A stretch of 62,752 nucleotides of DNA, filler included, from Asterionella formosa (lineage: Eukaryota), in the NCBI GenBank assembly GCA_002256025.1. It is 19 parts of 19 records of this genome, joined end to end, with 100 filler letters (N's around TTAATTAATTAA, not from the genome) between each part and the next. Parts side by side here need not be neighbours in the genome. Positions count along the whole stretch, not along the records: positions 6,634 to 9,858 come from NKIB01014347.1; 18 more parts are not named here. The stretch is one strand, 5' to 3'. Position 1 is the stretch's first letter. Every line of letters starts with the position of its first letter. The position numbers were made by a program, and so were the translations under genes. The notes beneath the pieces were generated by a model that worked only from the letters and a program-made list of their open reading frames with translations, was not told the DNA's origin and ran no database searches. Of this stretch, positions 1,599 to 62,752 are shown piece by piece.

Positions 1599-2070
1599 AT
1601 GTTCGCTCCAAAGGCAAAGTTTGCTCTGACCCGAGCTGCAAAGTCCGCAGCAAACCAGAACTCAGTGCGCCAAATGTCCGTCATCACATTGAGCGATGAA
1701 GATGCCATTGAAAAGTTTCGAATGATCAACAGCAGGAGCGTTCTGTATTTTACCGCATCCTGGTAAGTTTCTTCCATCGCTGCAACGTCTTTGTTGTTTC
1801 CTCCGCATGAACTGACCATCTTTTTCTCTAATGTCTTCAATTCGTAGGTGCCCCCCTTGCAAGGCAATTTCTCCAATCTACTCTGAGCTGTCAAAGAAAT
1901 ACCCTGATGTTGCCTTTGGGAAGGTTGACGTTGACGAATGCCAAGATGCAGCTCTAGATTTTGAAGTTCGATCTGTTCCTACGTTTGTTGTATTTGAAGG
2001 AGAAGTGGCGAAGGATAAGTTTGTTGGTGCTGATGCAAATCGATTGGAGGCCATGATCAAGACTCTTTAG
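1599..2070 (+). CDS. Thioredoxin (WCPPC active site), two exons 1599-1762 and 1848-2070, probable mitochondrial presequence
   Basis: Removing the GTAAGT...TAG intron 1763-1847 joins YFTAS-W to CPPCKAISP...FGKVDVDE...VRSVPTF...FVGAD. The N-terminus is basic, Ala-rich and has no acidic residues. Confidence 0.92.
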
Positions 2071-2495
2071 TACTCATAGTAGCCATGCACATATGCTGTA
2101 TTATGTAATTGAATTTAGATAGGTTATGGATACAACGTGTGCTAGGAAATGGCGGTATTTCTTCTTATTTAATCATGTTGAATATACATCCATCTCAATC
2201 ACTCACGAATAGTTGGCTATGATTTTTTCTTTGATGTAAGTTTCGGTTACCCTTGATTGGCAAGCCATACTGTGTATAGCAACAAGTTGGGTAGAGCTTC
2301 ATTAATTTATCACTTTACTGGGGTGTGTTCTGTCCTTGTGCATTGTTTGCAGTTTTCCAGCAGATGTGATGATGTTTGTTGTTGTTGCTAATATGGAGTA
2401 CACACAACCCTCCACTTTGACTTAGTTTGCACCATGAATTGGTAACCCAGTACTCCTTCTGTTCCAGTTGCAGTACCAGGTACTCCCTCTGGGCG

Positions 2496-2860
2496 AAAAA
2501 AGATAGCATGTTTTAGAGTCAATTTGTACTCCCCTATTTTTAGGCAAGTATGTCATTGTGCTACCTGCCAACAATACCTGTGCTTCCCTAGTTTTGTTAG
2601 CATAGGTGAGTCCCCAACCGCCTTTCGCAAAAGGTGATCATCTTACCCGCAGTGTTAGGGGAAACTCCAACTGCCTAGAAAGGCGGCACAAGCTGCTTGT
2701 AGGGGGTAATCCACTCTTTCTTGCAAACCAGACAAGACCATAAGGGGTGGTAAGGAGTGTAGGAGTGGAACCCAACAATTGTTTCTCAAAAAATTGCGGG
2801 AATCGAACCTCACAACCTCAGATCAAAGGCAACATGCTAAACCACAAAGCCATTCCCTTA
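2496..2860 (-). mobile_element. Candidate tRNA-derived SINE or Pol III ncRNA
   Basis: The minus strand has A-box-like TGGCTTTGTGG (2852-2842) and B-box GGTTCGATTCC (2809-2799). The body 2500-2715 recurs at 49330-49552, and both copies end in a minus-strand T-run. Confidence 0.55.
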
Positions 2861-3003
2861 TCAGCCAAGGTATTTGTTCATGTCTTGATAATGTTAATTA
2901 ACTTGATGGATGTTTAATAACCTGATGTGGTTTAACATTGATAAAATATATGGAATCCAACAAATCGAGAATCAATATTTTTAGTAGTGATTAGAAACCA
3001 AGA

Positions 3004-3217
3004 CCCAAAACATTTCGACATTTATTGACAAATGACTGGAGATGTTTACTTATTGACAAATGACTGGACTGGAGATGTTTACTTGTTGAAAAATGACTGG
3101 AGATGTTACTTATTGACAAGTGAATCAGATGCTCACTTATTGTCAAAAGAATAAGTGCTGCTCACTTATTGTCAAATGAATATGCTTACTTATTGTCAAA
3201 GTAAGCAAGATCATTTT
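3004..3217. repeat. MITE-like element with subterminal TTATTGACAA/TTATTGTCAA repeats
   Basis: Tandem units of ~28 bp flip motif orientation near 3125. Bases 3159-3217 are the exact reverse complement of 13114-13172, where the sequence starts CCCGTCAAAA. Confidence 0.6.
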
Positions 3218-3317
3218 NNNNNNNNNNNNNNNNNNNNNNNNNNNNNNNNNNNNNNNNNNNNTTAATTAATTAANNNNNNNNNNNNNNNNNNNNNNNNNNN
3301 NNNNNNNNNNNNNNNNN
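3218..3317. other. Artificial contig spacer (N44-TTAATTAATTAA-N44), first of 18 in the window
   Basis: An identical 100-bp linker with stops in all six frames starts at 3218, 6534, 9859, 13173, 16486, 19799, 23109, 26418, 29726, 33033, 36340, 39647, 42950, 46252, 49553, 52854, 56154 and 59454. Confidence 0.99.
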
Positions 3318-3372
3318 CAAGTCGGTACCAGGGTACTCAATTTCTCAACAAGGCAACACCTATTACACGCGC

Positions 3373-4239
3373 ATGTTGTCGAGTTCGAAGAAAGGAATCG
3401 ATTATTCCAAGTGGGATCACATTGAATGTAGTGATAATGACGATGAGGAGGAGGACGACGAAGCACCACTGTCATTTCATCCCAAGACGAATAATAATCC
3501 TCGCGTCACACGATTCGATGCGCCACGTCGAGTGACAACCCAAAACGATGGGACCTTGTTTATTGAATCGTCATGTAAAGTGGAGGAATCCTTGGTGGAG
3601 AATCAAATAGTGAGCAAGAAAGAAGAGCCATCCTGTAGAATAGACGAGAAAGCAGTCATCGACAAGAAGCAACTTGAATGGACCACACAAGGGGGACGGA
3701 CAACAACTTCTGGGGAAACTGGAGAACTGGATCTCTATTGGACCCAAGATCGACACGACGCAATCATACGAATACAGCTCCCATCTTACATTTCTAGCAA
3801 GGATGTGTCAGTCAACATTTCTGGGACAGTCTTGACTTATGAAGATAGGAACTCTGCTGCCGGGGATCAGCGAGCGACTGTAGTTGTCACTTCCAAGACC
3901 AAGGTGCTCTTGAGCTCCACGCTCGTATATCCCGTGCATTATTCGCAAGACGACAATGAAGATGACGTGGATTGGTCAATTGATTACCTTGGAAGCGAAC
4001 GATTTGTTGTCATTATCCTCCACAAGGCAGCACCGATGCACGGGGTCACCCTTTGGTGGAGGCGTCCATTGGCGGATATGGAGGAAGTTGAGATTGATCG
4101 AGGTTCCAATCAGAAGGAACAAGGCAAAAAATTTCAGCAAGCTTGGGAAGAGGCACATCGCCAGTTTCTGGCCAAGATTGAGAGCGGAGAGCTGCCGAGA
4201 ATGAATACAAAAATGGATCCACGTGACCATCATCATTGA
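3373..4239 (+). CDS. CS/p23-like (NudC-type) domain co-chaperone-like protein
   Basis: 288-aa ORF with N-terminal IDYSKWDHIECSD, YWTQDRHDAIIRI (CS domain start), and DWSI...IILHKAAP...WWRR. Confidence 0.7.
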   Translation: MLSSSKKGIDYSKWDHIECSDNDDEEEDDEAPLSFHPKTNNNPRVTRFDAPRRVTTQNDGTLFIESSCKVEESLVENQIVSKKEEPSCRIDEKAVIDKKQLEWTTQGGRTTTSGETGELDLYWTQDRHDAIIRIQLPSYISSKDVSVNISGTVLTYEDRNSAAGDQRATVVVTSKTKVLLSSTLVYPVHYSQDDNEDDVDWSIDYLGSERFVVIILHKAAPMHGVTLWWRRPLADMEEVEIDRGSNQKEQGKKFQQAWEEAHRQFLAKIESGELPRMNTKMDPRDHHH

Positions 4240-4390
4240 ACAAGAGAATGCTGGATTTCCAAGCCCAGCAGGCGATTCATCGGCAATGCAACTGCAGTTC
4301 CACTAGCAGGGGAGTCATTGCAATGGCTCTGGAGAATGCATAATACTCAAGAATTTCGTATTTCATCTCAGTCCTAATTAATGTCCCTTC

Positions 4391-6406
4391 TTAGTAGGAA
4401 TTGTTATCTAATACCATATTTGTTTGTCTCGATAGCTGTGGTAACAATGCCAATGCAACAGGAGTTAATGGAATACACATGCCATCAGTTGCAAATCCAA
4501 CTCCGTGAACAACATTTCCTCCAGGGGGGTGCTTGGGATAGCGCTGGGAAAAATGAGTCAAAAGGCACGATTGGGCATTCATGTCTTTGGCGATTTGTGT
4601 CGCTTCCATTACAGTTGAGTGGCGCTTGGCTTCGGCAAGGCTGCGGTCGTCATCGTCAAAGGTAGCTTCATGCAGCAGAAGTGATACTGAAAAGTCATCA
4701 TTTTTATGGCAGCATGCTCGAACAAGGTTCTTTGATGGTCTTGTGTCGCCACTGTAACAAAGTGTAAAAGGTATCAATCCTGGCACTTGTATCCTGATAA
4801 TCAATCCATGAGCATGTGGACAGTGTTCCACTGCTACACTGCGTAGTATTTGGATGGGTTGATACAACGTCCCATGCTGATGTAAAGTAGTATCGAACAA
4901 GGTGTGTCGCACTTCACTGCAAAAAGGCGATGTTTCAAATTCAGAATGAGTGACTCCATAGTAAAGGCGGCGACCACCTGCTACTTGCTTGCCATTGGAA
5001 CATTGCAACATTGTGTCCACATAAGTGAGTACCTTGGATGGTGCAATTACAATTGGGAATGCCCCCTCCATGGAAGTTGTTTTCATGCGCTTCGTCTGGT
5101 TTGTATCTTCTGCGATTCTTGCAATTTCTCGTAATAATGTCGTCAATCCCCCATAGTGATCCAAATGTGCATGTGATATCCAAATGAAACGAATTTGTTT
5201 AAGTTGATCTGTTACTGTTTGGAATGACATGGTTGGTAAATGACGGGCCAGATTGGTCAAGAAACCTTCACCGCATTCCAGCACACCAATGAGAGATTGC
5301 GAGTCTTGGTGTGGAAGAAACAGTCCATATCCAGATGATCCTCGATGTGGAGAGGGTGATGCACAACCAGTTCCCAATATTAAAAGGTATGGAACAGGTT
5401 GAAAGTATTGCAATTGAGAAAGAAAGGAGGATTCCTCCTCTTCCTCGTCCAAATCAATTTCATTTTCATCAAATTCCACACCGTGGTGATACCAAGCATG
5501 GTGCAACTGGTCAAGAATGGTTGGTTGTAAAATAGAAGCGGCAATACCTCGCTCGGTACAGCTCGCGTTGATTTCGTCCATTTGCGTGGTGTATATTTCT
5601 AAAGTCGTCAAATCCAATGTGGAACATGAAACAAGGTGATGATCATTCGCGTTTGGTACCACATTTTTCGATACTGGAAATGAGTACGCAAAGGGAAGCA
5701 TTTGATTTAACAATTGGGCTTGGTAGATGGCCCTAATAAAGAGTCCACGATCCAGAGTTATATTGGATGGCTGAGTAAAAAATACTTCACCCTCACCTTG
5801 AGCGTCACAACTACCGATATTATTCGTTACAATGGTACATCTCAATGCAGGGTCTTTTCCTTTTGTTCGTCGTTCCATAACATAGTCCGGGAGCACGTCA
5901 AGTGTTGTCATGGGTGGCACAACAGCGAAGGATATGTCCGCACCTGCAAGTGACAGTGTGTAGATGAAGCTCAACCCCCCTCCTTCCCTCTTGCTTTTGG
6001 CGTGAGCCACTAAATATTCATCCTTATATACTTGGTACCAATCCCCGTCCAAGGGGACGTCGCAGGTAGTGACTGGCAAAAGATGGCGTTCATGTCCAGT
6101 CGTCAAAACGGTCGAAGCCATGGGACCCACCAGCACCAGTTTGGCGGCTCCAGCTTGAGACAAGGTAAGAATCAATGAAGCAAGGCCATCCAATGATTCC
6201 AATGTGGGAAAAAAAACTGCAGCCACATTGTTCAAGGGAACTCGTTGATCCGCTGACAATCGAGCCGATGCTGACGACAAGCCCGACAATGCGTAGCGCT
6301 TCAGCACGCTACTGTCCCGTCGCTTGAGTTCCAACAACAACGTGGCGCTTCCAGTATACTCCGATCCATCTGTCAAGCAGTGAATGGAGTGTGACATGGA
6401 AGACAA
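4391..6406 (-). CDS. Ribonuclease Z-like (ELAC2/tRNase Z long form) metallo-beta-lactamase protein
   Basis: Motifs LGTGCASPSPHR, ECGEG, ISHAHLDHYGG, HCPHA, YSGDTRP, HEATF, HST and THFSQRYP. Confidence 0.88.
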   Translation of the reverse strand: MSSMSHSIHCLTDGSEYTGSATLLLELKRRDSSVLKRYALSGLSSASARLSADQRVPLNNVAAVFFPTLESLDGLASLILTLSQAGAAKLVLVGPMASTVLTTGHERHLLPVTTCDVPLDGDWYQVYKDEYLVAHAKSKREGGGLSFIYTLSLAGADISFAVVPPMTTLDVLPDYVMERRTKGKDPALRCTIVTNNIGSCDAQGEGEVFFTQPSNITLDRGLFIRAIYQAQLLNQMLPFAYSFPVSKNVVPNANDHHLVSCSTLDLTTLEIYTTQMDEINASCTERGIAASILQPTILDQLHHAWYHHGVEFDENEIDLDEEEEESSFLSQLQYFQPVPYLLILGTGCASPSPHRGSSGYGLFLPHQDSQSLIGVLECGEGFLTNLARHLPTMSFQTVTDQLKQIRFIWISHAHLDHYGGLTTLLREIARIAEDTNQTKRMKTTSMEGAFPIVIAPSKVLTYVDTMLQCSNGKQVAGGRRLYYGVTHSEFETSPFCSEVRHTLFDTTLHQHGTLYQPIQILRSVAVEHCPHAHGLIIRIQVPGLIPFTLCYSGDTRPSKNLVRACCHKNDDFSVSLLLHEATFDDDDRSLAEAKRHSTVMEATQIAKDMNAQSCLLTHFSQRYPKHPPGGNVVHGVGFATDGMCIPLTPVALALLPQLSRQTNMVLDNNSY

Positions 6407-6633
6407 CCAGTTGTCTGTTCAGGCCCTGATATATATCATTGGGTTGAGTTTTACATCTTTGTTAGCATTATTAACGCTTTTTCCATTTGTGTCCATTTTA
6501 AAGATTATATTTGGTACATTTTTGTTTTAAATGNNNNNNNNNNNNNNNNNNNNNNNNNNNNNNNNNNNNNNNNNNNNTTAATTAATTAANNNNNNNNNNN
6601 NNNNNNNNNNNNNNNNNNNNNNNNNNNNNNNNN

Positions 6634-8370
6634 AACCTGCTTGGCGTGTGCGTACACACAGCCACTGTCGACTTGTTTTCATTGGTATGTTGTTCTTGTA
6701 TTCACTGTTGAACTTGTCCGCATCTTTGTTAACATCAATAGACCTACAAGTGGCCTGGCTCTCTTCATTGTTGTTTGCTCCTGGAAAAGTCGGTGTCCAT
6801 GTCATCCTCATCAATAGAGAGACAAGTTCTTTCGCTGGAAAAATTGGTACTCGTGGTATCATTATTCGCTCGTTGGAACCACTGTCCGTTTCCTCAAACC
6901 TGATTAGCGTGTGAGTATGTGCACTGTCGACTTTTGTACATTACAGGCGGAGTGACTTCGCTACTAAATTGCGTGATATAATAATATACCCCGTAGCACG
7001 ATGCATAATACAGTTGCTTCCCAATCATCTCATCATGATTGACAAGATGATAATGTGATATCATGATAGGGTTACATCGATGCATACATCACCAAAGTAT
7101 GATACGTAATAATAAATAAAGTACATCACAGAACTATGATACACTGATCATAAAACTATGATGATTTTATAAAATGTTAATGAAATAATTTTGATCAAAA
7201 TATGATTATGTTAAAATAGTACAATGACAATAAAATACGATAAAATATATACGCAAGTGTTACCAAGACATCATAGAATATAAATCAAGCAATCATAAAG
7301 TATGTTAATTAATATATGTGTTTGTCGTTTAATTTATACAGTTAAAACGATCATATTATACAGTGGATAGGATCTAAGTATATGGATGCGTTGATATGTA
7401 CATCACTATAATATGATTTGTGACATGGATTGATGCATATCACATACCGGTATCCTCAACAACCAGCCATCACGTTCATTATTGTGTCGTCTTTCCTTGT
7501 TTTAGCTATATATATGCTCAGATCCGTTCCATTGCAAATCTTCCTTCAATAGGTCAAACTCGTCATCCTTGAGCATTTGCCTTCCAGTGGCATCGTAGGA
7601 CTGAAGCGCGTCCAGAAAGATACGCTCCTTTTCGGCTACTGTGAGACGAATGAGTTCCCCACTTTCCGGATCGACGACACAGTATTCCTCGTCAGGACTA
7701 CTTTCGTTTTTGCTTGATCCCTATGGGGAAAGATGGAAGTAAGAATTTTTATTTACTCATAAATAGTTACTAACAAAATGGTTATTTGTTTTTAATCAAG
7801 TACAGCCATTTGCAAATAAGCGGACGCTGGTGTCGTTTCTTTTGCTCCATCGACCGAGTCGGACAGAAGTGTCATGTTTATGACAAGTCTCTTCGTTCCA
7901 ACCACTCCTCATATTCGAAACCGTTTGATTCGTTGTTGTGGCACGTCAAACGACTATGCGAATCTTTATGTGCCAGTTGTTCAATAATTCAGAAGAAATA
8001 CAGCATCAGCTGGCAGCATGACAAACAGCACGCCAAGGCACACTAAAAACTCATGATTTACGGACCCCTGTTATCATATGACATTAACACAGAATCAGAA
8101 AGCATCAATACTCAATCCTGGATTTCATCCGAATGCTCCTGAATTGAAAGGGTTTGCTGCAATGTCAATTGAATCCTCGACTCAAATAGAAGAACTCTGC
8201 AATACAGTTGAATGGTGAGTGTGTTCTTGTTGTGTACCTAAATGCTAGTATGGCTTGTCAGCTCACGCATTGTTGTTGCCAACAGGGAAAATGAGGTCCA
8301 GAATGAAAATTGTTCAGGTAAGATTACTGCGCTATTTTGACGGCTATATGAGCAACGCTACTGATAACTC
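6634..8370. repeat. Copy of a mosaic interspersed repeat family (shared with 29000-29725, 33133-36339 and 36440-39646)
   Basis: 6650-7225 matches 29150-29725 directly. About 6920-7930 is the reverse complement of ~35360-36330, and 8235-8357 is the reverse complement of 33133-33255. Confidence 0.9.
7502..7720 (-). pseudogene. PGRL1: Captured exon fragment of PGR5-like protein 1 (N-terminal stromal part)
   Basis: Translates as EEYCVVDPESGELIRLTVAEKERIFLDALQSYDATGRQMLKDDEFDLLKEDLQWNGS, matching the PGRL1 motif FL.ALQSFY..GK..M.NEEFD.LKEEL.W.GS. It is preceded by a pyrimidine tract and AG, and lacks the transmembrane half. Confidence 0.8.
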
Positions 8371-8483
8371 ACACTGATCTTCCTCTTCATTCAATTGACA
8401 TTGCAGCAAACCCTTTCAGTGCAGGAGCATTCGCATGCCGTTCCGAATGAGCAGGCTTTATTTCATTAATGAAACTCTTTAAT

Positions 8484-8740
8484 TTAGTTGAATTACCTGC
8501 AGTAAAATAGTTGAACAACCTTCAGAAAAATAGTGGAATGGCCTTCAGATAATTAGTTGAATGAACTCCAGAAAATTACGTAAACAAATTTTACATATTA
8601 AGTGAACTTTATTCTAGAATTATGTGAACGAAATTATAAGGCAATGTGAACTAAATTACAGAATTACGTGAAGTATTTCAAATAATTACTTGAAGTATTT
8701 CAAATAATTACTTGATGTATTTCAAATAATTACGTGAAGG
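8484..8740. repeat. Degenerate ~22-bp tandem repeat (AATTACGTGAAGTATTTCAAAT-like)
   Basis: About 11 imperfect units are visible, and they are near-perfect at 8661-8738. Confidence 0.7.
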
Positions 8741-10499
8741 TGATGACGTAATATAGTGATGATCAGGAATGCATGCATGATATTTTGATCAAATATTTAA
8801 CGTGATGTGTTCAGATAATATATAGATATATTCAACTACGTATTTTGATGTATTCAACTAATTCATGTGATGCATTCAAAATCAACTAGGCTTATTTATG
8901 TGATGGTCACTTCATGTAATACGCGGCTTAGATGTCGTTGCCACTACAATTTGGGGAATTCCCTCATGATATGGAAATCCCCTGAAATCATTACTTATAT
9001 ATCTAAATACACCATATGATCGTTTTGAATACTTTTATGCTAGAATTCGATTTGGCAGGAACTATTTTAGTGTGAAACTCATTGCCCCAATGGAAAAAAA
9101 TTCGTTTTTTACCAGAGAGCTAGATTCTGTCCGGTTCAGAGGCACAGATCTATCATAGAATATGTTTACCAGCCGTCAATGAGTGTACATATGCATATTT
9201 ATTGTTATGCAACGAGTAAAAATGTACAGGAATAAATATAACAGTATATTGATGCATATATTTAGTCTCTTCTTTCCTGAATACATATTTACTATGTATA
9301 CTTGTGAACTAATACAACAATACTTGTGAACTAATACAACACACACACCATATGTATTGTTGAATATTTCTTACGTACTAGTTTGTATAATCTTGGAACA
9401 TGATGTTTGCCAGTACTAGTAGTAGTGGCAACATCACCATGACAATGACGATATGCCTATTGTTAACAGATAAATCACCAATTCTAAATTAATTGTAATT
9501 TTCAGAAACTACTGATGTTGTAAGTTAATGCATACATGATAGACAACAGTTATCTACAAACAATTTGGGTTTTGATCTGGCAAGAAATCATGGAGATATT
9601 GTTGCTTCAGTTGAGTGCCATTTTGCTTCCACCGATTTTCTATTTTAGCCATTTTGCATACATGTGTCAGAGTGTGTCTGTTAGGCTGTTGATGTCGACA
9701 GGTGTCCGAAGGCTAGGTAGTCTGAGGAATGTCTAAACGGAAATAGACAGGATTTATATAGCAGAAGAAGCTGCAGACGAGCGGCGTGAGAAAGATCTTG
9801 ACCGGTCATTCCAGGGCAGTACTGGAGCGCGCTAGAGTAGCGCCATATATTTCAACATNNNNNNNNNNNNNNNNNNNNNNNNNNNNNNNNNNNNNNNNNN
9901 NNTTAATTAATTAANNNNNNNNNNNNNNNNNNNNNNNNNNNNNNNNNNNNNNNNNNNNCTAAAATCGAACGTTCTATTTGATTCTTGTCTGGCCACACCG
10001 AAAACATTGGAGGACACACAGAAACAGGGTTTCTGTATGTCCTCCATCAGTTCAATCTACCGGACAAACTACCAGGATTCTGTGTTCCTCCACCGGACAA
10101 TCGTCCGGTATTTGAGAAAGTGATTGAACTGTTGTTCATCAAGACGAACACGGTGAAGCTAGTGATTTTCGGTTGAAGTTCAGTGAAAAACATCTTCAAG
10201 GCGTTATACCGGACGATTGTCTGGTAAATATCTAGTACTAGCTAGCTTGCAGTAGCTCTCTATCGAAGGGTAATTTTTAAAATGGAATCTTGATTGAGCG
10301 AAAATGTGCCTTTTTTGTCAGTAGAAGTGTGATATATACGTGGCTGCAACTATAATTTAGAATAAACATCACTCTAACGTAAGACATATACCATTTCTGT
10401 GAGTACAAGCATAGTACATAATGATTATTGTAATATTTTTGCGTGCACATTCATAATCACATTTTTATTGCTCATTTGCACATTCTTGGTTTCATCCTC

Positions 10500-11960: not shown

Positions 11961-13699
11961 TTATGGTTATAAAATCAAAGCTGCAGTGTTTCCAATGATG
12001 CTCCTACTACTATGTATGTACCATTTGATGTACTACCCAGTATATCAGCATGTTGATGCGGCAGGAGGTACCTGGTACCTCCTGGCAAAGTATTTGGACA
12101 GGGCGGTATTTGTCGTAGTCACGCGATCTTTTTCGTATTCTATCGCCTATTACATGTTGGAGTGATTGTAACAGCCAAAGCAAAAGCATCATTTGCACAG
12201 CTTTATGTCGTAGTCACGTGATCATTTTCGTATTTTATCGCCTAGTACTTCGTGGTGAGTTGCCCCTGGTATACACCTGGTACCAAGTTACAGGTATTTG
12301 AAACACAGAAGAATTCTTGATTCCTGATTCCCAGTTAGGTCTCCACTTTTGTTTGAAGACATTATTTCCCTACTAGTCGTTGTGTTTGATGGAACAACGC
12401 GCAATTAGGTACCAAGGTTAATAACCTTCAGACATTTGATAAAGAACAATGTTTAAGGGCGAATTCTATCAAGTTTTCCCTATGTTAACCAAACATTTTT
12501 GGTAAACCCTAAACTATGAATGATTGGAGAGACAAATCAGTTCTGTCCAAAGGATTGAAGAACAATCGAATCATCCTACTATTAAAGGATTGAGGAACAA
12601 TCCAATCATCATAGCGCAGACACCTGAAAGAAGTATCTCAGTAAAGGAACATCTATGTCCTAGAATCTATCTAGGCTAGATGGATATTTATGTTAGAAGC
12701 AGGAAGAGGATGCAATCTACTTCGCTACAGCTGTAGGAACTATGAAGAACCTCGCTTCCAAGGAAAAAGGAACAAATTCAGTTCAGAAACATGTAGGAGT
12801 TGCCATGTTTCAATCGAAACTACATTTCAAAATTACATTTAGTTTAAGCTCACTCTTTTAGAAAGCACACAAATGAAATTACTCATACTACTCATCGAGT
12901 TGATTTCTAACTCAGGTAATGTACCATATTGTTAAATTCTCTTGTTGAAATATCACAGATCTTACTTTTAAGATCACTAAAGCTGAAAACGTAGTTTCAC
13001 TTTACACTTTGTAATATTGTGAGCTTTCTGTAAATAGTCTATCTAGGTCTTGTTCTTGCCTGATTACTCATGTAATTCCAAACAAGACTTCTCACACTTT
13101 CCTTGATCCCGTCAAAATGATCTTGCTTACTTTGACAATAAGTAAGCATATTCATTTGACAATAAGTGAGCANNNNNNNNNNNNNNNNNNNNNNNNNNNN
13201 NNNNNNNNNNNNNNNNTTAATTAATTAANNNNNNNNNNNNNNNNNNNNNNNNNNNNNNNNNNNNNNNNNNNNAGGATCATTTGATCATATTTTTAAGATC
13301 AAATAGTCCTGATTTCTGAAAATAAATTTTGATCTTTCATTTTCTCATCAACGGCACCATTTATCATATGATCGATATGTTATATGATCAAAGGAATAGT
13401 ATAAATGAATCAAACTTTATTGATAAAAGATCATAGTTTATACCGGAGTAGGCTAGTTGCTCATGCATGCAACCCCTTCCCCCCTGTATACAGTACGGAA
13501 GTGATAACCCCCAAGCTACCAAATTTTTATGTCTTGTAAGAATTATCGCAGCATGCATGCATACATGACTCCTACTGGTATATACTACAATGTGGAAATG
13601 ATGACCACGAGACTACCAATCCTATAGGTCCTGAATAATTATCGCAACATGGCTGCATATCTAATGTAAGGGTGGGAGGAGTCATCCATGCACCTATAT

Positions 13700-19898: not shown

Positions 19899-21100
19899 AA
19901 GGCGACAATAGAAATCCTGTAACAGAATGGTATAATTTGAGTCTACATAAGGACAAGTCGTATCCAGATAACTTATTATTCATTTATTTTTCCAGATCAC
20001 TGACTTCAATGTCTGGCAAAAGAGATACTAATTGCCATCCATCAACTTTTTTCTTCCTTCTAACGTTAAGTTTAACATTGTCAGCAAAAACGGATGCTCG
20101 GAATGTTTCATTTGTTTATCAATAGGTGAACCATCACTGAAAACTGCTAGGGCAACAAATAAACACCCTGTCTTCAACACTCCTTTTTCTGATGCAGGAG
20201 AATTGTTGAATGCATTTTCAAACCAAGTCGCAGAAGTTACTTCGTCATATATGCGTTCTCCACAAGTTGTAAGTTTCACTTGTGGGTGACATACAAAATG
20301 TTGCATGATATCGGAATCACGTAGCAATCCTGCCATGAGCTGTACTGGTTCGAAATAATGGAGTGTGCGTGGGATGATCATGTTAGAATTGTTATCAATC
20401 TGTATTTTTTTGGTCGTCCAGCTAATGTTGGTGGAAATGAAATATCCATGCGTTTTTCCAAAGTCTGGTAGGATGGAGCTTGATACCTTCCATCAAAAAA
20501 TTTCATTGCTTTTGCCTCGAACAGCCATTTCATTAGATGATCAAAGTAAACTGGCGGAAGGTAATTCTCGTTAAGGAATAATATGAGATCTAATTCTATT
20601 GGATGCATGTTTAGGGAATGTTTACTTGGAAGTTGAAATTGAGGAGGAAGGGGCATTTCCATTGCATTTTCAGGGAGAAAGCCGGTGTGATCTTGGAAAT
20701 CTGAATATTGCATGGTCTCTGAATTCAATCCTTGGAGAGTTTTTAGTCTCAATTGTTCGTCTTGTTGTGACTGAATATTGTTATAAACTGAATCGTCGCT
20801 GTCGTCATGAAATGGATGATTGTGGCCACTTGATTCAATGAAAGGACACATAATCTCTTTTTGTTGTCTACTCTTCCTAAATACTGCAGCAGTTACACTG
20901 CCATTAATTTCTTTCCTTGATTGATTCGATGCGCGCACTATCGCAATACATAGTTTCATTATGTATTCCAGGAACTCGATGTTCTTGCATGCAATGTCGA
21001 TAGTGACCATATGTATAGAAAACACGGTTGCTACAATTTCGGTTGTGAGACGACTCAGATGGGGATTTGTTCTTCCGAAATTTGTCTTTACTTTGATCAC
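19899..21100 (-). mobile_element. Plavaka/CMC-like DDE transposase, 5' part, degenerate
   Basis: YFEPVQLMAGLL...YDEVTSATWF...VALAVFSDGSPIDKQMKHSEHPFLLTMLNL, with a frameshift near 20380. It continues on the contig ending at 42949 through a 63-bp overlap. Confidence 0.7.
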
Positions 21101-29725: not shown

Positions 29726-29945
29726 NNNNNNNNNNNNNNNNNNNNNNNNNNNNNNNNNNNNNNNNNNNNTTAATTAATTAANNNNNNNNNNNNNNNNNNN
29801 NNNNNNNNNNNNNNNNNNNNNNNNNAACGATATTTAGTCAGGATGATTACTTTTTCTCACTACCAGGGCACCAACGAAAGAAAAACAACTATCCATTAGT
29901 AACCCCCGGTTTACTAGAAAATCCTAGATCCTATCAGCAACAAAC

Positions 29946-31598
29946 ATGAAGGTCTTTTATTTCCTTAGTCTGCTCCTTTTGCTAGTCGAAAGTGAAGGAC
30001 ACAACAGGGAACATCATCATACAGAAGGAAAGGACGAGAGTTCGATGAAGGAAACAACAACCGGCCATCATCTGAGGCATTCCGCCAGCTCTCATCACAG
30101 CAAGCACAACGGCGAGCATCCTCCTCACAATCATCATGAGCATGATAAGCATCACCATGAGCATGAGCTGAAACATGAGCAGAAACATGAGCATGAACAC
30201 GAGCTGAAAGATAACCATGATCATGATCATCACCATGAGAATGAACATGAACATGATCATGAGCATAAGCAGCCTTCTCATGATCATCACCATGAGCATC
30301 CTTCTCATGAACATGAACATGATACGAGCAAGAAACCTAGTGGTCATCATCATGCCAGTAAAGTCATGGATTCAAAAGAAAAGAAAACAACAACCACCCT
30401 ACCTCCAGCTGTAGTGGTTGCCCCTCCAGCCGAAATTCCTCCTGCTGTAGAAGTTGCTACCCCAGTAGTCACGGATGGTAGCGGAGACAGTGAGGCTTCC
30501 CAGGATGCTGTTCCTCCTGAAGAAGTTGCTACCCCAGTAGTCACGGATGGTAGCGGAGACAGTGAGGCTTCCCAGGATGCTGTTCCTCCTGAAGAAGTTA
30601 CTACCCCAGTAGTCACGGATGGTAGCGGAGACAGTGAGGCTACCCAGGATGCAGTCGTTGATGTTGACAAGTCGTCGGATGAGAGTGAGAGCAGTGACAA
30701 TTCCGAGGATGAAGCCGCCAATGCTGATGAATCGTCTGATGAAAGTGCCAGTAGCGACACTTCCGAGGATGAAGCCGGAAGTGCCGATGAATCATCTGAT
30801 GAGAGTGCCAGTAGCGACACTTCCGAGGATGAAGCTGCCAGTGCTGATGCATCATCTGACGAGAGTGCCAGTAGCGACACTTCCGAGGATGAAGCCGCCA
30901 GTGCCGATGAATCGTTAGATGAGAGTGAGAGCAGTGACACTTCCGAGGATGAAGCCGCCAGTGCTGATGAATCGTCAGATGAGAGTGCCAGTAGCGACAC
31001 TTCCGAGGATGAAGATGCCAGTGCTGATGCATCATCGGATGAGAGTTCCAATGTCGGTGACGCAGTTGATCCTTCTGATGTTTCCCAAGATAGTACTGGT
31101 CCCGTTTTGGTCACAGTTGATGCAACTGACGAACCAACATCCTTTCAAGGTTTGGACGTGCTGGCACATGCCAGTGCCTCTAAGAGGACTGCGATTTTGG
31201 AAGAATCGACAAGCGCGACAACGAACCATGTAGCACATGGAACAAGGACCAATTCTACCCCCGCTAGCCACACATCGACAACAGCTAGCAAGGGAACTGT
31301 AAGGGCTGTTGCAAATTCTACCACCACCAGGAAATCGCATACATCCGCAAGGCAAAATGATACAGAGGTCATTATGGACTATGTTCATAATTTCACGACT
31401 CCCTCTGTTAGTGAGCATAGTTCAGCATCAAGCAAGGGAAGTGCCAATAATGAGAGCGAAATCTGGGATTTGAAATTTCCAGTGCTCTGGGTCATCATTG
31501 GTAGTCTTGCTGTGGCCGGTGTTGGCGTTATGGTGTACAAGCAATGCAAGCATAGGCGCGATGGATATCAACCACTTCAAGACTCACTCACTGTGTAA
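29946..31598 (+). CDS. Secretory type I membrane protein with a His-rich domain and Ser/Asp/Glu-rich repeats
   Basis: Signal peptide MKVFYFLSLLLLLVESEG, HE/HD-rich region, 3x 23-aa and ~6x 20-aa repeats, a TM helix FPVLWVIIGSLAVAGVGVMVY, and a short tail with YQPL. Confidence 0.88.
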   Translation: MKVFYFLSLLLLLVESEGHNREHHHTEGKDESSMKETTTGHHLRHSASSHHSKHNGEHPPHNHHEHDKHHHEHELKHEQKHEHEHELKDNHDHDHHHENEHEHDHEHKQPSHDHHHEHPSHEHEHDTSKKPSGHHHASKVMDSKEKKTTTTLPPAVVVAPPAEIPPAVEVATPVVTDGSGDSEASQDAVPPEEVATPVVTDGSGDSEASQDAVPPEEVTTPVVTDGSGDSEATQDAVVDVDKSSDESESSDNSEDEAANADESSDESASSDTSEDEAGSADESSDESASSDTSEDEAASADASSDESASSDTSEDEAASADESLDESESSDTSEDEAASADESSDESASSDTSEDEDASADASSDESSNVGDAVDPSDVSQDSTGPVLVTVDATDEPTSFQGLDVLAHASASKRTAILEESTSATTNHVAHGTRTNSTPASHTSTTASKGTVRAVANSTTTRKSHTSARQNDTEVIMDYVHNFTTPSVSEHSSASSKGSANNESEIWDLKFPVLWVIIGSLAVAGVGVMVYKQCKHRRDGYQPLQDSLTV

Positions 31599-33132: not shown

Positions 33133-36100
33133 GTTGCTCATATAGCCGTCAAAATAGCGCAGTAATCTTACCAGAACAACTTCCATTCCGGACCTCATTG
33201 TCCCTGCCTGTTGTCAACAACAATGCGTGAGCTGACAAGCCATACTAGCATTTTTCGCCAACTATTCCGTTGTTTGATTGGTTTTATGGTCCTATGCAGT
33301 TACAGAAACAATGAGAAGGAATGATTTGTTAGCTAGTAGTCATGTTACATTGAAACAACGACACGCAATTCCATCGTATCCTCTTGCTTCACTTACCACA
33401 AATCAATGCAACTGAGGATGCATAAGTCTGTTATAGTAACTTTTCAGTAAGCCAAATTCTTGAATAAGTAAGTTTCGGGTATCCAATGTTGTCGAATAAA
33501 ACTTACCGGTTCATTTTTGTCATCTTCACTTTGAGAGAAGGTAAACGTTTTGTCAGCTTTGTTCCAACAGAAGTGAATAGGTCCAACGAGCGACAAGAGC
33601 ACTTACGCAATTTGGTTCGGTTTTGTTTTACATTGGTGCTCCCCAAGTCAGCTTTGTTCCAACAGAAGTGAATAGGTCCAACGAGCGACAAGAGCACTTA
33701 CGCAATTTGGTTCGGTTTTGTTTTACATTGGTGCTCCCCAACAAGCGAAACGAGCTGTTGAATCAACTGAGAAAAAAGGAAATGTGGCTGCGTTTAGTTA
33801 ACAATTTGATGTTGTGCTGCCTGTCTCCCAACGATTGTCATCCTAGTACCACATTGATGGCTTCATTACCTTAAACATTCTCCATCCTTCGAAGGCACAA
33901 TGTGTCGAAGTCACAATGTTTTTTTCGTTATGTATTGCGTAAACTTACTTTGCTTTTCATGTGATTTACTACGACATATCTTTTCATGAAGCAGCAGGCA
34001 TTGTTTGTTAACATGACAGAACGATTTCAAAAATAAATATGCCATGAATACAGTAATAGAATTTGTAAATATATGTATATATATATATTAAGTAATATAC
34101 ATTTATAAAATTCAAAGGCGCTCTCGATATGGAACATCTGATATGGTTGAGATGGCCATACTCGCATATACATAATTCGAAAATACTCAATGCACTATAT
34201 GTCCATTGTTTTCCACAACTACGTGTACCGGAATTGTTTCTGAAATTTGTTTGCATCGATATTTTCTACGTCCGTTGAAACTAATTATTTAGACCGTTCA
34301 AATGCCGCAAAGGTTTTGGTAGCAAATTGTTTAATCCCCTTTTTTGGGCGGGAGCTCTTCATGTGTACCGGTACATCATATGACAATAACAATGTATCAT
34401 TTATACATACAGAGTACCAGTAGCAGGTAGTAACTGATATACTGGGGGTAGTCGGAGTAGTACCGGTAAACTAGCAACAGAACACCATATGTTCAGGACT
34501 GTTGCTACTGCAGTGGGACAGTAAATCATCATAGTTTTTGCATTGTATGATCGTAAAATTATGATCCAAAAGAACACCATATGTTCATGACTGCTGCTAT
34601 TGCAGCGGGACAGTAAATCATCATAGTTTTAGGATCGTATGATCGTAAAAGTAAAAACCAATGGAATACCATATATTCAGGACTGTTGCTACTACCGTGG
34701 GACAATAAATCATCATAGTTCTAGGATTTTATGATCGTAAAACTAAAAACCAATAGTCGGAGTAATAAGCGAGCAACAGAACACCATATGTTCTGGCATA
34801 CCTACCCGGTAGTTATCATAAAATTGCTTTTATGAATTTAACTGGCGCGATAATTAGCCATGCTGACGAGTTACTACCGGTACCAGGTAGAACGTCTACA
34901 TCTTTTATCAGCACCTACAGTTATGGTGGTACAATGTTTTTCCCTATTATTTTCTGTCACAGCTTGTAGAGAGGCTGTGAAAGTCAAAGCGCTGCCCCCC
35001 GCCCCCCCCCTCTATTATACCGGAAAATTTTGGTACATCACCCATTATCGTGCGTTGCAACGGCCTGCGACAGGGTGGCTGTGGTTATGGAGCAGGGGGT
35101 AGAACGCCACAACATGACGAAGTCCCAAGGATCATGAATGGGAAGAAAACTTTGCTGCATTCTGGTGGTACCATTGGACTTAGGAAACAGCGAGGAAGGT
35201 TGTATCCCGCCGTATCAAATGGTTTCGAATAAAAGGAGTTGGAACGAAGAGATGAGACAAGAACTGACCTGACACTTCTGTCCGACTTGGTTGATGGATG
35301 TCTCCCGCCTATTTGTGACTTCCTGCGCAACAAAACAAAACTTGCCACAACGACGAATCAAACGGGTTTCGAATATGAGGAGTGGTTGGAACGAAGAGAC
35401 TTGTCATAAACATGACACTTCTGTCCGACTCGGTCGATGGAGCAAAAGAAACGACACCATTTTGTTAGTAACTATTTATGAGTAAATAAAAATTCTTACT
35501 TCCATCTTTCCCCATAGGAATCAAGCAAAAACGAAACTAGTCCTGACAAGGAATACTGTGTTGTCGATCCGGAAAGTGGGGAACTCATTCGTCTCACAGT
35601 AGCCGAAAAGGAGCGTATCTTTCTGGACGCGCTTCAGTCCTATGATGCAGCTGGAAGGCAAATGCTCAAGGATGACGAATTTTACCTATTGAAGGAAGAT
35701 TTGCAATGGAAGAACGGATCTGAGCATATATATAGCTAAAACAAGGAAAGACGACACAACAATGAACGTGATGGCTGGTTGTTGAGGATACCGGTATGTG
35801 ATATGCATCAATCCATGTCACAAATCATATTATAGTGATGTACATATCAATGCATCTGTATACTTAGATCCTATCCACTGTATAATACTATCATATTAAG
35901 TGTTGACTTTAAGTGTATACATTAAACGACAAACATATATAATAATTAACATACTTTATGATTGCTTGATTTATATTCTATGATGTCTTGGTAACACTTG
36001 CGTACATATTTTATCGTATTTTATGGTCATTGTATTATTTTAACATGATCAAAATTATATCATAAACATTTCATAAAATCATCATAATTTTATGATCAAT

Positions 36101-39746: not shown

Positions 39747-41716
39747 ACAATGCAACGGTCATGTTTGCGAACTATATTGGCTAAATATCAAAAATTATTT
39801 GATGGAAAATTAAAAGTTTATCCTCATAAACAGGTACATTTGGAATTATTATCAAATGCCAGCCCTCGTCATCGCGTCGCCTACGTTTATTATTCCTAAA
39901 AAGGATGGAAGTGTCCGATGGGTATCAGATTTTCGTTAACTCAATAAAGTCATCAATCGCAATATATATCCGTTACCTCGAATGCAAACGATTCTCACTA
40001 AACGTTCTGGATATGTATTCTTCACCAAATTGGATTTTTCTATGCAATACTATACTTTCGCATTAGATATGGAGAGTCATAATTTATGCGTTATTTTCAC
40101 TCCATTTGGTTTTTTAAATATTAACGTCTCCCTATGGGGGTGAAACAATCATCTGATATAGCACAAGAAACTATGTAACAGATCCTTAGTGATTTAGATG
40201 ATGTGGAAATTTATATTGATGATGTGGGTTGTTTTTCAATGAATTTTTCGGATCACATTCATTTATTGGATACTATTTTACATCGTTTACAGACAAATGG
40301 TTTTACAATTAATCCATCTAAGTGTGAATGGGCCGTCCAAGAGACAGATTGGTTAGGCTATGATTGGTTAACTCCTAATGGAATGAAACCTTGGTCTAAA
40401 AACAAGGTCCAAGCATTGATTAATATGTCTTCACCTACCAATCTTAAACAAGTCAGATCATTTCTTGGTGCTGTTACGTACTATCGAGACATGTTTCCTA
40501 AACGAGCGACCTCATGTTCTTGGACCGCTTACAGATTTAATTGGAACTAGTCCATTTGTCTGGTTGCCTATACATCAATAAGCTTTTGAATAAATGAAAG
40601 CGTTCTTGATTGCAGATACACTCATGTGTTATCCTGATCATAATCTTCCTTTTCATATCTTTACTACTGATGCCTCTGATTATCAATCAGGATCGGTCAT
40701 TATGCAAAATGATCTCCCAGTTGCTTATTATTCTCGCAAATCATCTGCTGCTCAAAAGAATTATACTACTATTGAAAAAGAATTACTTTCTGTGGTAGAA
40801 ACTTTCAAAGAATTTCGCTCTATGTTATTGGGTGCAGTTCTACATGTTCATACTGATCATCGAAATCTTATTTACGATACTTTACATACTCAACGTGTTC
40901 TAAGATGGAGTCTTTATATTGAAGAATATCATCCTACGTTTCATTATGTTAAAGGGACTGACAATGCTAATGTAGATTCCATCTCTCGCCTCCCGAGGCT
41001 TGAGTCTTTGGTGGGGGATGATATTGGACCGAAATCTCCAGCATCAACATCCGTTTCTACCTTTTCAATTGAATTAGATGATGAACCTTTGCTTACATGT
41101 TTCCTTAATCATCCCATCTTGACAGACAATATTCAATATCCTCTGGATTATAATTTAATACATGATAGACAAGTGCTGGATATACATTTGATTCTCAATC
41201 AACAAACATATCCGTTAAAATTTCCCTCTATCAATTTTCATGACATATTTTTAATATGTTTTGTGAAGAATCCAGGAGATATTTGGCGTATTGCTATTCC
41301 TACATCATTATTGGATCCTATTATGAATTGGTATCATCAGATACTAGCTCGTGTGGGTATGACAAGATTAAATGCTACAATTGCTACACATTTTTATCGC
41401 CCTACATTGAAAGCAAGAGTGGAACATATTGTAAGAGTATGTGAAGCATATCAACGTACAAAATTACCTGGTACTGGTTATGGTGAACTTCCACCCAGGA
41501 ATGCATTATTATTACCATGGTCAGAAGTCGCAGTAGATTTAATTGGTCCATGGAAGATAACAGTGGCAACTCAAGTAATTGAATTTCGTGCTCTAACTTG
41601 TATTGATAAAGTTACCAATTTGGCAGAAATACATGTATCAGTAACAAAACATCAGAATATATTGCGATGAAATTTGAAAATGATTGGTTAGCCAGATATC
41701 CCCATCCAGAACGTTG
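39747..41716 (+). mobile_element. Ty3/Gypsy LTR retrotransposon pol remnant (RT-RNase H-integrase)
   Basis: Motifs PKKDGSVRWVSDFR, YIDD, TDASDYQ.G, AYYSRK...NYTTIEKELL, HTDHRNL, PWSEVAVDLIGPW and ARYPHPERC, with many stops and frameshifts. Confidence 0.92.
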
Positions 41717-42949
41717 TAAGATGAGGGTAATGTTTCATTCCATGAAATTTTGCCATTTGTAAGCCAATTTGAGATATCATTTCCCGTTGTGGACCAATCA
41801 TAATCTTAGTAACTGACATAAATCTCTTCACCCTTTCCTCTAAAATATCAATACATGTTGATGTATATTGTGGTTTGAATAAAGTATCATTGATAGATAT
41901 ACATAGCCATAACAGCAATGTGAAAACGTTTTCTAGGTGCATGTTCTCTGAACCCATCATTCCACCCATTGAAAAAATAGTTAGCAGACATAATCCGGGA
42001 ATTTCTTGCCTTGCCCTGACATTTTCGACAAAGCTGTCATCCCAGATCTGTATGACAATTTTGGAATATCACGATCGCTTTGCCTTGTTTTTCAAATGAC
42101 TATTGATATATCTAGCACTTTGTTCGAAGTATAGTTTCGAAAATACATTTCTGGTGCTGGTACAAGTGTTGGGTCTTCATTTTTGCCAGTGTAGAAATTT
42201 TTGATAACTGGTGCGTGTGTCCTTTTTGGTCTTTGCCCGTTTCTTCGGTTGCTCTTGATCAAGAAAAGCAGAGTCTGTTGTTTCAGTGTTACGTTTATGA
42301 TTGGAGATGTTTTCTGGAATATCTGGAGATTTTCTTTCTTTAAAAAAACATGTCCATTCTTCAGGGATAGTCCGATAATTGTACAAAGATTCCAAAATTT
42401 ACTTATATATTCCAAGTAGTAATTGATGAAGAACCTCAAATGGAGTTGCACCAAATAATCCTTCTAAGTCACCACCAAAAAATGATTTATTAGTGCAGGC
42501 ATAATAGGATTATGCGATGCGATATATCACGGCACCACTCGTTTGCTGTTGCGTATTTGCCATTAGATTGGGAGACACAATACTCAGGTGGGATATATGG
42601 CAATTTTCCATCGGGATATGCATTTTTGTCAAGAAATTTGTTTAAAAACTATTAAACATCTGACACTTTACGACGTTCACATCCAATATCAGGATTATCA
42701 GCATCCTCAGTTGAAACCAGGCAATCACGACAAACATATCGTCGATATAATCCATTACCGCCCCTGAAGCCACAAATTTTATTGTGTTCTTCTGTATCAC
42801 CAATGATCATTCCAATCTGGAAATAAACTTTTGTCATACCAAGACCATGAACCCAAATATCGTATGACTTGTTTGGATCTTCGAAAGGCGACAATAGAAA
42901 TCCTGTAACAGAATGGTATAATTTGAGTCTACATAAGGACAAGTCGTCA
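41717..42949 (-). mobile_element. Plavaka/CMC-like transposase, middle part, degenerate
   Basis: IGMIIGDTEEHNKICG...CRDCLVS and FGGDLEGLFGATPFEVLHQLLLG. It is contiguous with 19899-21100 through the overlap. Confidence 0.7.
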
Positions 42950-62500: not shown

Positions 62501-62752
62501 CGTCCATGCAAAGAGTCACTTCGCGTTGAGCTTGAATAAGCTCCTTAGGAATCTCGATGTAGTCGTTCACGACTGGCAGCGGCTTGCGACGAGTTGTCTT
62601 GCCTTTTAGTGTTCCGATGTCAGGCCCAAAAATTTTCTCTGCAATTTTGATATCATCGGTAGTCACTGGATTATTGTTGATCGTATTCATACGAATTATT
62701 GCCTTGAAATCATTAATTGATGGTGTACCCAAGGCATGAAATAGATCACGAG
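59554..62752 (-). mobile_element. Diatom-type Ty1/Copia (CoDi-like) pol: integrase-RT-RNase H, frameshifted, with PPT and start of the 3' LTR
   Basis: Integrase HCDNEF...EHVPEAERNNRVIKER, RT ADIPNAF/KALYGM/WHVDDLK, RNase H YVDAAF/SSTEAEL/ADYMTKPL. CAGGAGTG is followed by TGTTGG at 59564 (minus strand). Confidence 0.95.

Follow-up and report, generated by a model that had tools for sequence, protein, structure and literature searches.

A fragment of PGRL1 coding sequence amplified within a mosaic repeat in an Asterionella formosa genome assembly

What is a piece of a photosynthesis gene doing inside a repeat? The DNA considered here (the window, 62,752 nucleotides in all) is made up of 19 assembly contigs of 3,199–3,225 bp from the Asterionella formosa assembly GCA_002256025.1, joined by spacers of the form N44-TTAATTAATTAA-N44. 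In three of them, contig 3 (6634–9858), contig 11 (33133–36339) and contig 12 (36440–39646), an open frame of about 70 codons resembles the N-terminal region of PGRL1, a thylakoid protein of cyclic electron flow. The original prediction, made from the sequence, saw in these frames an exon captured and amplified by a transposable element. We find that about 180 bp of PGRL1 coding sequence are joined to a breakpoint near the end of another, repeat-borne gene, and consider it likely that the piece is a dead passenger, multiplied passively within an abundant, dispersed mosaic repeat.

The PGRL1 piece and its limits

Translation confirms an open frame ending in a stop at each of the three predicted places (Table 1). 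Contigs 11 and 12 are 99.72% identical across all 3207 bp, with the PGRL1 piece at equal offset, and are alleles, assembly bubbles or very recent copies; the window therefore holds two independent versions rather than three. Over the 1052 bp surrounding the piece, contigs 3 and 11 share 88% identity, so that the frames do lie in one and the same repeat, as had been proposed. The piece itself has a GC content of 0.47–0.50 (contig 3: 0.50) within AT-rich flanks of 0.35–0.39.

Judged by protein sequence comparison, the frame peptide is beyond doubt derived from PGRL1, as predicted. A peptide search returned 220 proteins at E ≤ 0.01 (best 2.6e-35), nearly all of them diatom proteins of 250–350 aa, and an exhaustive protein search returned 298 representatives at E ≤ 0.001. 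Over the first N-terminal repeat of PGRL1, BLASTP against the nearest full-length protein, P0004, gives 58 of 65 identical residues (89%, E 3e-41, residues 45–109), and P0047, named 'PGR5-like protein 1A [Seminavis robusta]', matches the frame peptide at E 3e-33. No Pfam model matches the 72–73-aa peptide. In a tree of 15 PGRL1 proteins, P0004 pairs only with one other protein, attached to no named genus; the PGRL1 relatives mark the source as diatom-like.

The exact limits of the piece were obtained by aligning the window copies with eight metagenome loci (L001–L007 and L021; 93–99% DNA identity), and we refer to the PGRL1-derived DNA as F, to the repeat module on its 5′ side as U and to that on its 3′ side as D1. 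In each frame 179–182 nt (~60 codons) come from PGRL1, and the first eight codons (ESSKNESS) and the last four to five (EHIYS and the stop) are foreign. Locus L005 has genuine upstream PGRL1 coding sequence (...FFETNLQEEECIPDEEYC...) where the other copies have repeat. Diatom PGRL1 has two N-terminal cysteines (ECIPDEEYC), and because this alignment places the genuine upstream codons beyond the junction, the first of them is not part of F; it had been thought to be included, and only the second (YCVVD) is retained. F is 94–99% identical to parent-like coding sequence and holds a single N-terminal stromal repeat with one cysteine. Functional PGRL1 has a targeting peptide, two N-terminal repeats, two transmembrane helices and two CxxC motifs, of which the piece covers only ~residues 47–107: compared with P0004 and P0047, the second repeat, both transmembrane helices and both C-terminal CxxC motifs are missing. 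In land plants, the transmembrane and CxxC motifs of PGRL1 are functionally essential.

Table 1. Features of the PGRL1-bearing repeat and other mobile-element fragments (window positions, unless a metagenome locus is named)
Feature	Position	Strand	Remarks
Open frame, contig 3	7502–7720	−	72 codons + stop
Open frame, contig 11	35518–35739	+	73 codons + stop
Open frame, contig 12	38825–39046	+	73 codons + stop
F, contig 3	7518–7696	−	CCTGAC...GGATCTGA; codes PDEEYCVVD...LQWNGS, ~residues 47–107 of P0004; 179 nt
F, contig 11	35542–35723	+	182 nt; 3-nt insertion gives WKNGS; E>K, Y>D, T>A, D>Y
F, contig 12	38849–39030	+	contig 11 version plus L>R
U (3′ end and 3′ flank of Z), 5′ of F	7697–7946	−	common to all copies up to 7946
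D1, 3′ of F	6634–7517	−	begins GCATATATATAGCTAA, source of the frame's stop codon
D1 copy, contig 9	29151–29725	+	90.6% identical to contig 3; contig ends ~290 bp before the place of F
66-bp island in D1	6785–6850	+	97% match to L003 4765–4830, just upstream of the Z ORF start
Z, intact 488-aa ORF	L003 3363–4829	−	ends ...SLVSFLLDSYGERWK
Z remnant, contig 3	7701–7742	+	last 13 codons LSFLLDPYGERWK + stop TAA at 7740–7742; translation
Z remnant, contig 11	35496–35540	−	LVSFLLDSYGERWK + stop; translation
Z remnant, contig 12	38803–38847	−	LVSFLLDSYGERWK + stop; translation
D2 ORFs, three consecutive	L003 493–2498	−	204, 194 and 261 aa; also in L005, L007, L002
Tandem arrays, 22–23 bp units	8484–8879		TRF; just inside the end of the high-copy block
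Sharp end of high-copy block	~8934/8935		97 X1 contigs continue into unlike sequences (agreement 0.38)
Plavaka-type transposase fragment	20031–20492	−	Pfam scan of ORFs
Gypsy-type fragment	40594–41667	+	RT_RNaseH + integrase zinc domain; Pfam scan of ORFs
Copia-type reverse transcriptase fragment	60498–62750	−	RVT_2; Pfam scan of ORFs

The carrier repeat and its junctions

Modules of the repeat family occur in four of the 19 contigs (3, 9, 11 and 12), and eight further copies were found in metagenome contigs, namely the loci L001–L007 and L021. Parts of contig 3 are present in 20 sequencing runs of 16 studies, mostly labelled as freshwater metagenomes; one of these, an 'algae metagenome' DNA run (X1), holds 85% of the words of contig 3 and is probably the source DNA run. 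When Logan contigs were placed on contig 3 at ≥85% likeness, 185,693 contigs of X1 fell on its 3.2 kb. At place 7588 inside F an alternative letter is found in 101 contigs (31% of summed depth) and at place 7526 a 3-nt insertion in 39 contigs (~7% of summed depth); places 9370–9383 are covered by only 1–3 contigs. Since more than 100 distinct contigs cover places inside F, against 1–3 in this nearby low-copy stretch, the piece has been amplified together with its carrier, and the prediction of amplification inside a mosaic repeat is borne out. Summed contig depth, which is not a copy number, is 2.6–2.9 million in the two bins of F and 1–5 million over 6634–9009, and near the end of the block it falls from ~0.9–3 million to 2,000–10,000 (9118–9441). 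One sample thus contains very many diverged copies, perhaps thousands if 9118–9441 is single-copy. The unlike continuations past 8935 (Table 1) are as expected of dispersed insertions and not of a satellite. The motif AATTACGTGAA of the subterminal arrays occurs in contig 3 only, with five matches, a number that 2 of 100 shuffles reach, and its inverted counterpart was not found. At 9664–9858 there is part or all of a second high-copy repeat, which begins sharply at 9664/9665 (TGTCAGAGTGTG...) and whose start looks LTR-like (long terminal repeat); upstream of it the continuations are heterogeneous in all four runs examined.

The identity of U becomes clear from locus L003, in which this module occurs a second time and leads not into PGRL1 but into the end of an intact open reading frame (ORF) of 488 aa on the opposite strand, which we call Z. 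The C-terminus of Z is conserved in its homologues P0276 (~65% identical) and P0277 (~31%), and remnants of it adjoin F in all three window copies. This bears on the pyrimidine tract and AG that precede the frame and had been taken for a splice acceptor. As the opposite strand upstream of F translates as the C-terminus of Z, the supposed acceptor is no inherited splice site but that gene's final codons, stop and 3′ flank in reverse complement; the stop that closes the frame is real. F starts at a breakpoint inside Z, 13–14 codons before its stop, and is antisense to Z in every copy with a U–F junction. Past this junction the Z-type and PGRL1 sequences are alike at 9 of 13 positions (GATGGAGGGATAC and GACGAGGAATAC). 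Compared with L021 and contig 11, contig 3 lacks 1.96 kb at 7946.

On the other side of F, module D1 is common to contigs 3, 9, 11 and 12 and to L001, L002 and L004; it has no recognisable coding content, and Pfam gave nothing above cut-offs. It does contain a 66-bp island from the 5′ leader of Z, 667 bp beyond F. This one short landmark suggests that F and part of D1 stand where the interior of Z once stood.

Z itself has only four relatives among 5.8 billion proteins, one of them being a cluster with 116 near-identical members. No Pfam family matches Z, and a PDB sequence search gave nothing meaningful. Pfam scans of five ORFs of L003 likewise gave nothing, and those of 16 small ORFs of U and D1 with three of L003 gave two matches only, both below cut-offs; viral contigs scanned for Z and for PGRL1 held no relative of either. 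The conserved motifs of Z, PH(F/Y)DY ... MRGDTVHAG ... NGALRLHxYLS, resemble the HxD...H...R signature of 2OG-Fe(II) dioxygenases. Protein Atlas gave a weak lead to 2OG-Fe(II) oxygenases with a score of 0.90, which shuffled proteins reach in 4–10 of 100 cases, and an AlphaFold2 model built from a 5-row alignment has a mean pLDDT of 28.8.

The order U–F–D1 is solid, being found in six assemblies (contigs 3, 11 and 12 and loci L001, L002 and L004), and U–F also occurs in L003, L006 and L021. The 5′ junction of U with F is the same in all of these copies, and there are three different 3′ continuations: besides D1, L003 has 15 more PGRL1 bases (MVVMN) and then a 2.3-kb module, D2, and in L006 PGRL1 coding sequence continues to ~residue 245. 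Other copies have the genuine N-terminus, combined with D2 (L005 and L007, and the proteins P0282, P0283, P0285, P0287 and P0288), with D1 (P0280, P0281 and P0284) or with a third end, 'NRKHT' (P0279, P0286 and P0137). The coding sequence of PGRL1 is cut at residue ~109 by D1, at 113 by D2 and at 116 by 'NRKHT'. Units are also chained, D2 being followed by U and F in L003, L005, L007 and L002, and a D1 tail by U–F–D1 in L001. The three consecutive ORFs of D2, which are 96–100% conserved between loci, lie on the strand opposite to the PGRL1 piece and end 215 bp from it, may represent one gene with small introns or frameshifts; no family match was found for them in Pfam, in PDB sequences (two ORFs) or in Protein Atlas (one ORF). 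Gene calls on copies of this kind make up at least 12 protein clusters, which have 109 member sequences.

Constraint and transcription of the copies

Could the frames nevertheless be real exons, flanked by introns and belonging to PGRL1 itself in this organism or to a paralogue? An AG does stand before the frame, which is open in all three window copies. However, there is no GT donor where the homology to PGRL1 ends, and an in-frame stop follows; on the upstream side lies the antisense end of Z, and in L005 the N-terminal coding sequence runs on past the junction point without an intron. A tblastn search of the 19 contigs with four full-length PGRL1 proteins, a check that the original prediction had called for, was significant only at the three places of F (all others E > 0.5), so that the window holds no other part of the gene and no downstream exons. 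Very many diverged copies exist, and conserved residues are altered in the window copies: ECIP>ESSP (at the junction), QSYY>QSYD, DEFD>DEFY, WNGS>WKNGS and DALQ>DARQ. We therefore regard genuine exons as extremely improbable. The stop, the missing exons and the abundance of copies all contradict the idea that these are exons of the only genuine gene, and the prediction of a fragment stands.

The substitutions point the same way. Across the 11 DNA copies compared, we count 13 changes that are non-synonymous (one of them nonsense) and 6 that are synonymous, plus the in-frame 3-nt insertion. The corresponding ratio of non-synonymous to synonymous rates (omega, or dN/dS) is 0.57–0.69, which does not differ from neutrality (p = 0.26–0.43) and fits neutral drift, and omega ≤ 0.2 is rejected (p < 0.01). 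Between the two window versions F has diverged by 3.9% and the non-coding flanks by 4.9% (p = 0.70); a second comparison gave 2.7% and 2.4% (p = 0.79), and a third gave p = 0.037, which is not convincing among three tests. A frame of 59 codons has a 0.63–0.72 chance of remaining open after 7–10 random substitutions, and sister copies are in fact broken: L006 has an in-frame TAG and TGA and a frameshift, L007 a 36-nt deletion, and P0179 is frameshifted. P0284–P0287 carry an RY insertion, and several clusters carry an RY or TG-type insertion. The observation that the frame is open in both versions, with only a 3-nt indel between them, is thus correct and carries no sign of selection; the open frame of the window copies is what chance leaves after few substitutions, and no function of the peptide is to be expected. 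The difference between ESGELIRL and ESGQLIRL was tried as a marker separating pseudogene from functional sequences and was dropped, the protein clusters having been built at 90% or 50% identity.

Contigs from RNA libraries match F and its flanks U and D1 in three runs (X15, X16 and X19). In X16, one record (21) of 163 nt covers 7527–7689 with 1 mismatch, and another (22) crosses 7720/7721 with only 19 nt on the side of F and was not counted as bridging. One X15 contig runs from F into genuine N-terminal coding sequence, so its source is either the parent mRNA or a long-type copy. Among the joints listed there is no RNA splice joint at the supposed acceptor. RNA mapping, one of the checks originally proposed, thus finds F covered in RNA libraries and, among the joints listed, none at the acceptor. 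From these contigs neither strand nor transcription can be read, and RNA libraries may contain DNA.

Two features of X19, a polyA RNA run from the same sample as X1, may be recorded. There is no cover at 7066–7281, where the DNA depth is highest, which is not evidence of anything. Over 8362–8685, summed contig depth is 58,000–87,000, or 10–20 times that of any other bin; this region overlaps the 22–23 bp tandem arrays and a 49-nt inverted repeat (8126–8174 / 8389–8437).

A bolder possibility is that the piece has been co-opted, either because transcripts from the promoter of Z include ~180 nt complementary to PGRL1 mRNA and could bring cyclic-electron-flow capacity under RNA silencing, or because the 72-aa peptide is made. 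As F is antisense to Z in every U–F copy, a transcript from the Z promoter of a derivative copy would indeed carry antisense PGRL1 sequence, at the near-identity to parent-like coding sequence given above, and the RNA-library contigs extend over F, U and D1. Gene silencing and small RNAs derived from transposable elements are reported from diatoms (PMC2724275, PMC4247016). In its fullest form this idea has a repeat family of possibly thousands of copies, built around the dioxygenase-like Z and belonging to no recognised transposon class, take up a PGRL1 cDNA antisense to its own promoter and so become a standing source of antisense or small RNA; if true, it would link repeat load to photosynthetic control through a regulator of cyclic electron flow. 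Set against this are the RNA-library contigs without strand or proof of transcription, the lack of a joint at the acceptor among those listed, and a substitution pattern and equal divergence of F and flanks that show no constraint. We judge both co-option and its fullest form to be very improbable.

Origin of the piece and comparison with known systems

By what route did PGRL1 sequence enter the repeat? The most informative position is an intron that related genes carry after LDALQ. The gene calls P0173, P0188, P0181 and P0223 run from LDALQ into GT... non-coding sequence, and the genomic loci L025 and L024 read CAG/GTACGT...TTAG/ and CAG/GTAAGT, respectively, after LDALQ. P0173 is the nearest relative, with 3 differences from L005 in 79 N-terminal residues, and its call includes promoter-side sequence and a targeting peptide. 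All 11 copies are continuous across LDALQ/SYY without this intron, and L006 is continuous for 200 codons. Because the copies lack the intron that their nearest relatives carry, we favour, with moderate confidence, a founder that was an intron-less PGRL1 copy derived from cDNA. In P0182, P0192 and their relatives, which belong to another diatom lineage, the gene calls read through a different PGRL1 intron after ...W(E/N)GSQ, at a site within a few codons of the point where the window copies lose homology.

The alternative, and the one originally proposed, is capture at the DNA level by an element of the Pack-MULE, Pack-CACTA or Helitron kind, in which a non-autonomous element loses its internal gene and gains host DNA during gap repair or read-through replication. 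Several observations fit it. F and 667 bp of D1 lie where the intact version has the interior of Z, between its C-terminal remnant and the 66-bp 5′-leader island, so that a host gene fragment would replace internal element sequence as in Pack-type elements; a similarity such as the 9/13 at the junction is what template switching would lead one to expect; beyond the subterminal arrays, at ~8935, the high-copy block stops abruptly and its continuations are heterogeneous; and a Plavaka-type transposase fragment lies elsewhere in the window. Element termini, which had been named as a check, argue the other way, with one boundary of the carrier mapped (~8935) and the other end beyond the contig. 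Contigs 3 and 11 hold no terminal inverted repeats (TIRs), only imperfect inverted pairs of 15–49 nt, some of them within tandem repeats and none at the mapped terminus. The mapped end (...GGCTTAGATG) has no CTRR or CACTA-type terminus, and Helitron ends (5′-TC...hairpin-CTRR-3′) were not found there, as it reads ...CGCGGCTTAGATG. No transposase or Rep domain was recognised in Z or in the D2 ORFs, and no Rep/helicase domain in the 27 of 102 window ORFs of ≥90 aa scanned with Pfam nor in the ORFs of L003. Finally, the copies are without the intron that relatives carry inside the captured stretch. The internal replacement thus resembles Pack-type capture, the ends and the intron do not, and we consider DNA-level capture unlikely.

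A passenger founded from cDNA has to meet several objections in its turn, besides the caution that attaches to the depths. The intron structure of the parent gene is inferred from relatives and not from the same genome; the parent may have lost the intron before a duplication at the DNA level, and the parent-like L005 also lacks it, which weakened the missing LDALQ intron as proof of a retrocopy. In L005, stops occur at the expected position of the targeting peptide and no exon follows within 2.5 kb; on these grounds this locus is another fragment rather than a functional gene. At the piece we saw neither a poly(A) tract nor a target-site duplication, nor any LTR in its flanks: there is no A-tract at any junction, the 3′ sides of the copies being cut inside coding sequence or at the contig end (L006), and an all-against-all BLAST of the window contigs and the eight loci found no LTR-like pair around it. 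The two occurrences of U in L003, 3.3 kb from one another, belong to a chained unit. The 2.3-kb D2, which follows MVVMN in L003 and L005 and starts with GT, could strictly speaking still be a parental intron. All four combinations of 5′ side (U or the genuine N-terminus) and 3′ side (D1/D2 or continuing) occur; recombination among copies may have produced them, or short-read assemblies may be chimeric through the shared 180–260 bp, or both may apply, and for this reason the order of events cannot be reconstructed. Some transcription of the copies, and a non-coding role, are also possible.

The history that we propose for the dead passenger is as follows. The setting would be the nuclear genome of a diatom-like alga from fresh or estuarine water. 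There, an intron-less PGRL1 founder made from cDNA would have joined the carrier by template switching or break repair, which would have placed ~180 bp of PGRL1 at a breakpoint inside the 3′ end of the repeat-borne Z, on the opposite strand. F would then have been multiplied passively with its flanks U and D1, and later rearrangements may have created the alternative junctions, with the genuine N-terminus in place of U, and D2, 'NRKHT' or continuing coding sequence in place of D1.

Elsewhere in the window, the Pfam scan of 27 of the 102 ORFs found ordinary eukaryotic genes on other contigs (protein kinase, CNNM, LRR and SAP), together with the mobile-element fragments in Table 1. Some ends of different contigs are 100% identical, for example over 59 bases (3159–3217 and 13114–13172) and over 63 bases (19899–19961 and 42885–42947). 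These are assembly-graph overlaps, as in de Bruijn-graph assembly broken at repeats, and some contigs are therefore neighbours or alternative paths. Upstream of U in contig 11, and at +3307 in contig 12, a 95-bp sequence is duplicated exactly and a 92-bp unit is repeated in tandem 3.1 times (33552–33741, 34475–34756). Contig 10 carries a 556-aa frame (ORF 29928–31595) without a Pfam match, which contains tandem repeats at 30440–31050 with offsets of ~60–72 bp and multiples and self-matches that are 76–90% identical.

In plants, host gene fragments lodged in repeats are known to give rise to pseudo-exons, chimeric transcripts and triggers of silencing. In the present case they are also an annotation trap, as gene callers have made at least 12 'protein' clusters in public collections from such copies. 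In metagenomic and metatranscriptomic data from freshwater diatoms, the copies can be taken for paralogues of PGRL1 or for alternative exons. The case further illustrates that what looks like a splice acceptor can be the end of a different gene read in antisense, and it provides a lead to an unclassified and very abundant diatom repeat. If the cDNA origin is true, it would be evidence for reverse-transcript-mediated uptake of a gene fragment into a diatom repeat. Gene-fragment capture is familiar in plants and hardly documented in diatoms; our full-text literature search returned no paper on gene-fragment capture or processed pseudogenes in diatoms, although such papers may exist.

Two kinds of known system invite comparison. 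The Pack-MULEs of rice, Pack-CACTA elements and maize Helitrons carry fragments of host genes, and our repeat resembles them in holding a non-functional piece of a host gene that replaces internal sequence, is co-amplified with its carrier and, as is often the case in plants, keeps its frame open for a while. It differs in that no TIRs, target-site duplications or Helitron termini have been demonstrated and Z is no known transposase; moreover, Pack-MULEs and Helitrons copy genomic DNA with its introns, whereas F lacks the intron of its relatives' genes. Retro-type capture is known from processed pseudogenes and from LTR retrotransposons that contain fragments of host mRNA, such as maize Bs1. 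Here no poly(A) tract, target-site duplication or LTRs were seen, and the ORFs of Z and D2 are not gag/pol. The likeness to retro-type capture lies in a piece that is intron-less, truncated at both ends, neutral in its substitutions and embedded in a repeat, in a window that also holds Gypsy and Copia reverse-transcriptase fragments.

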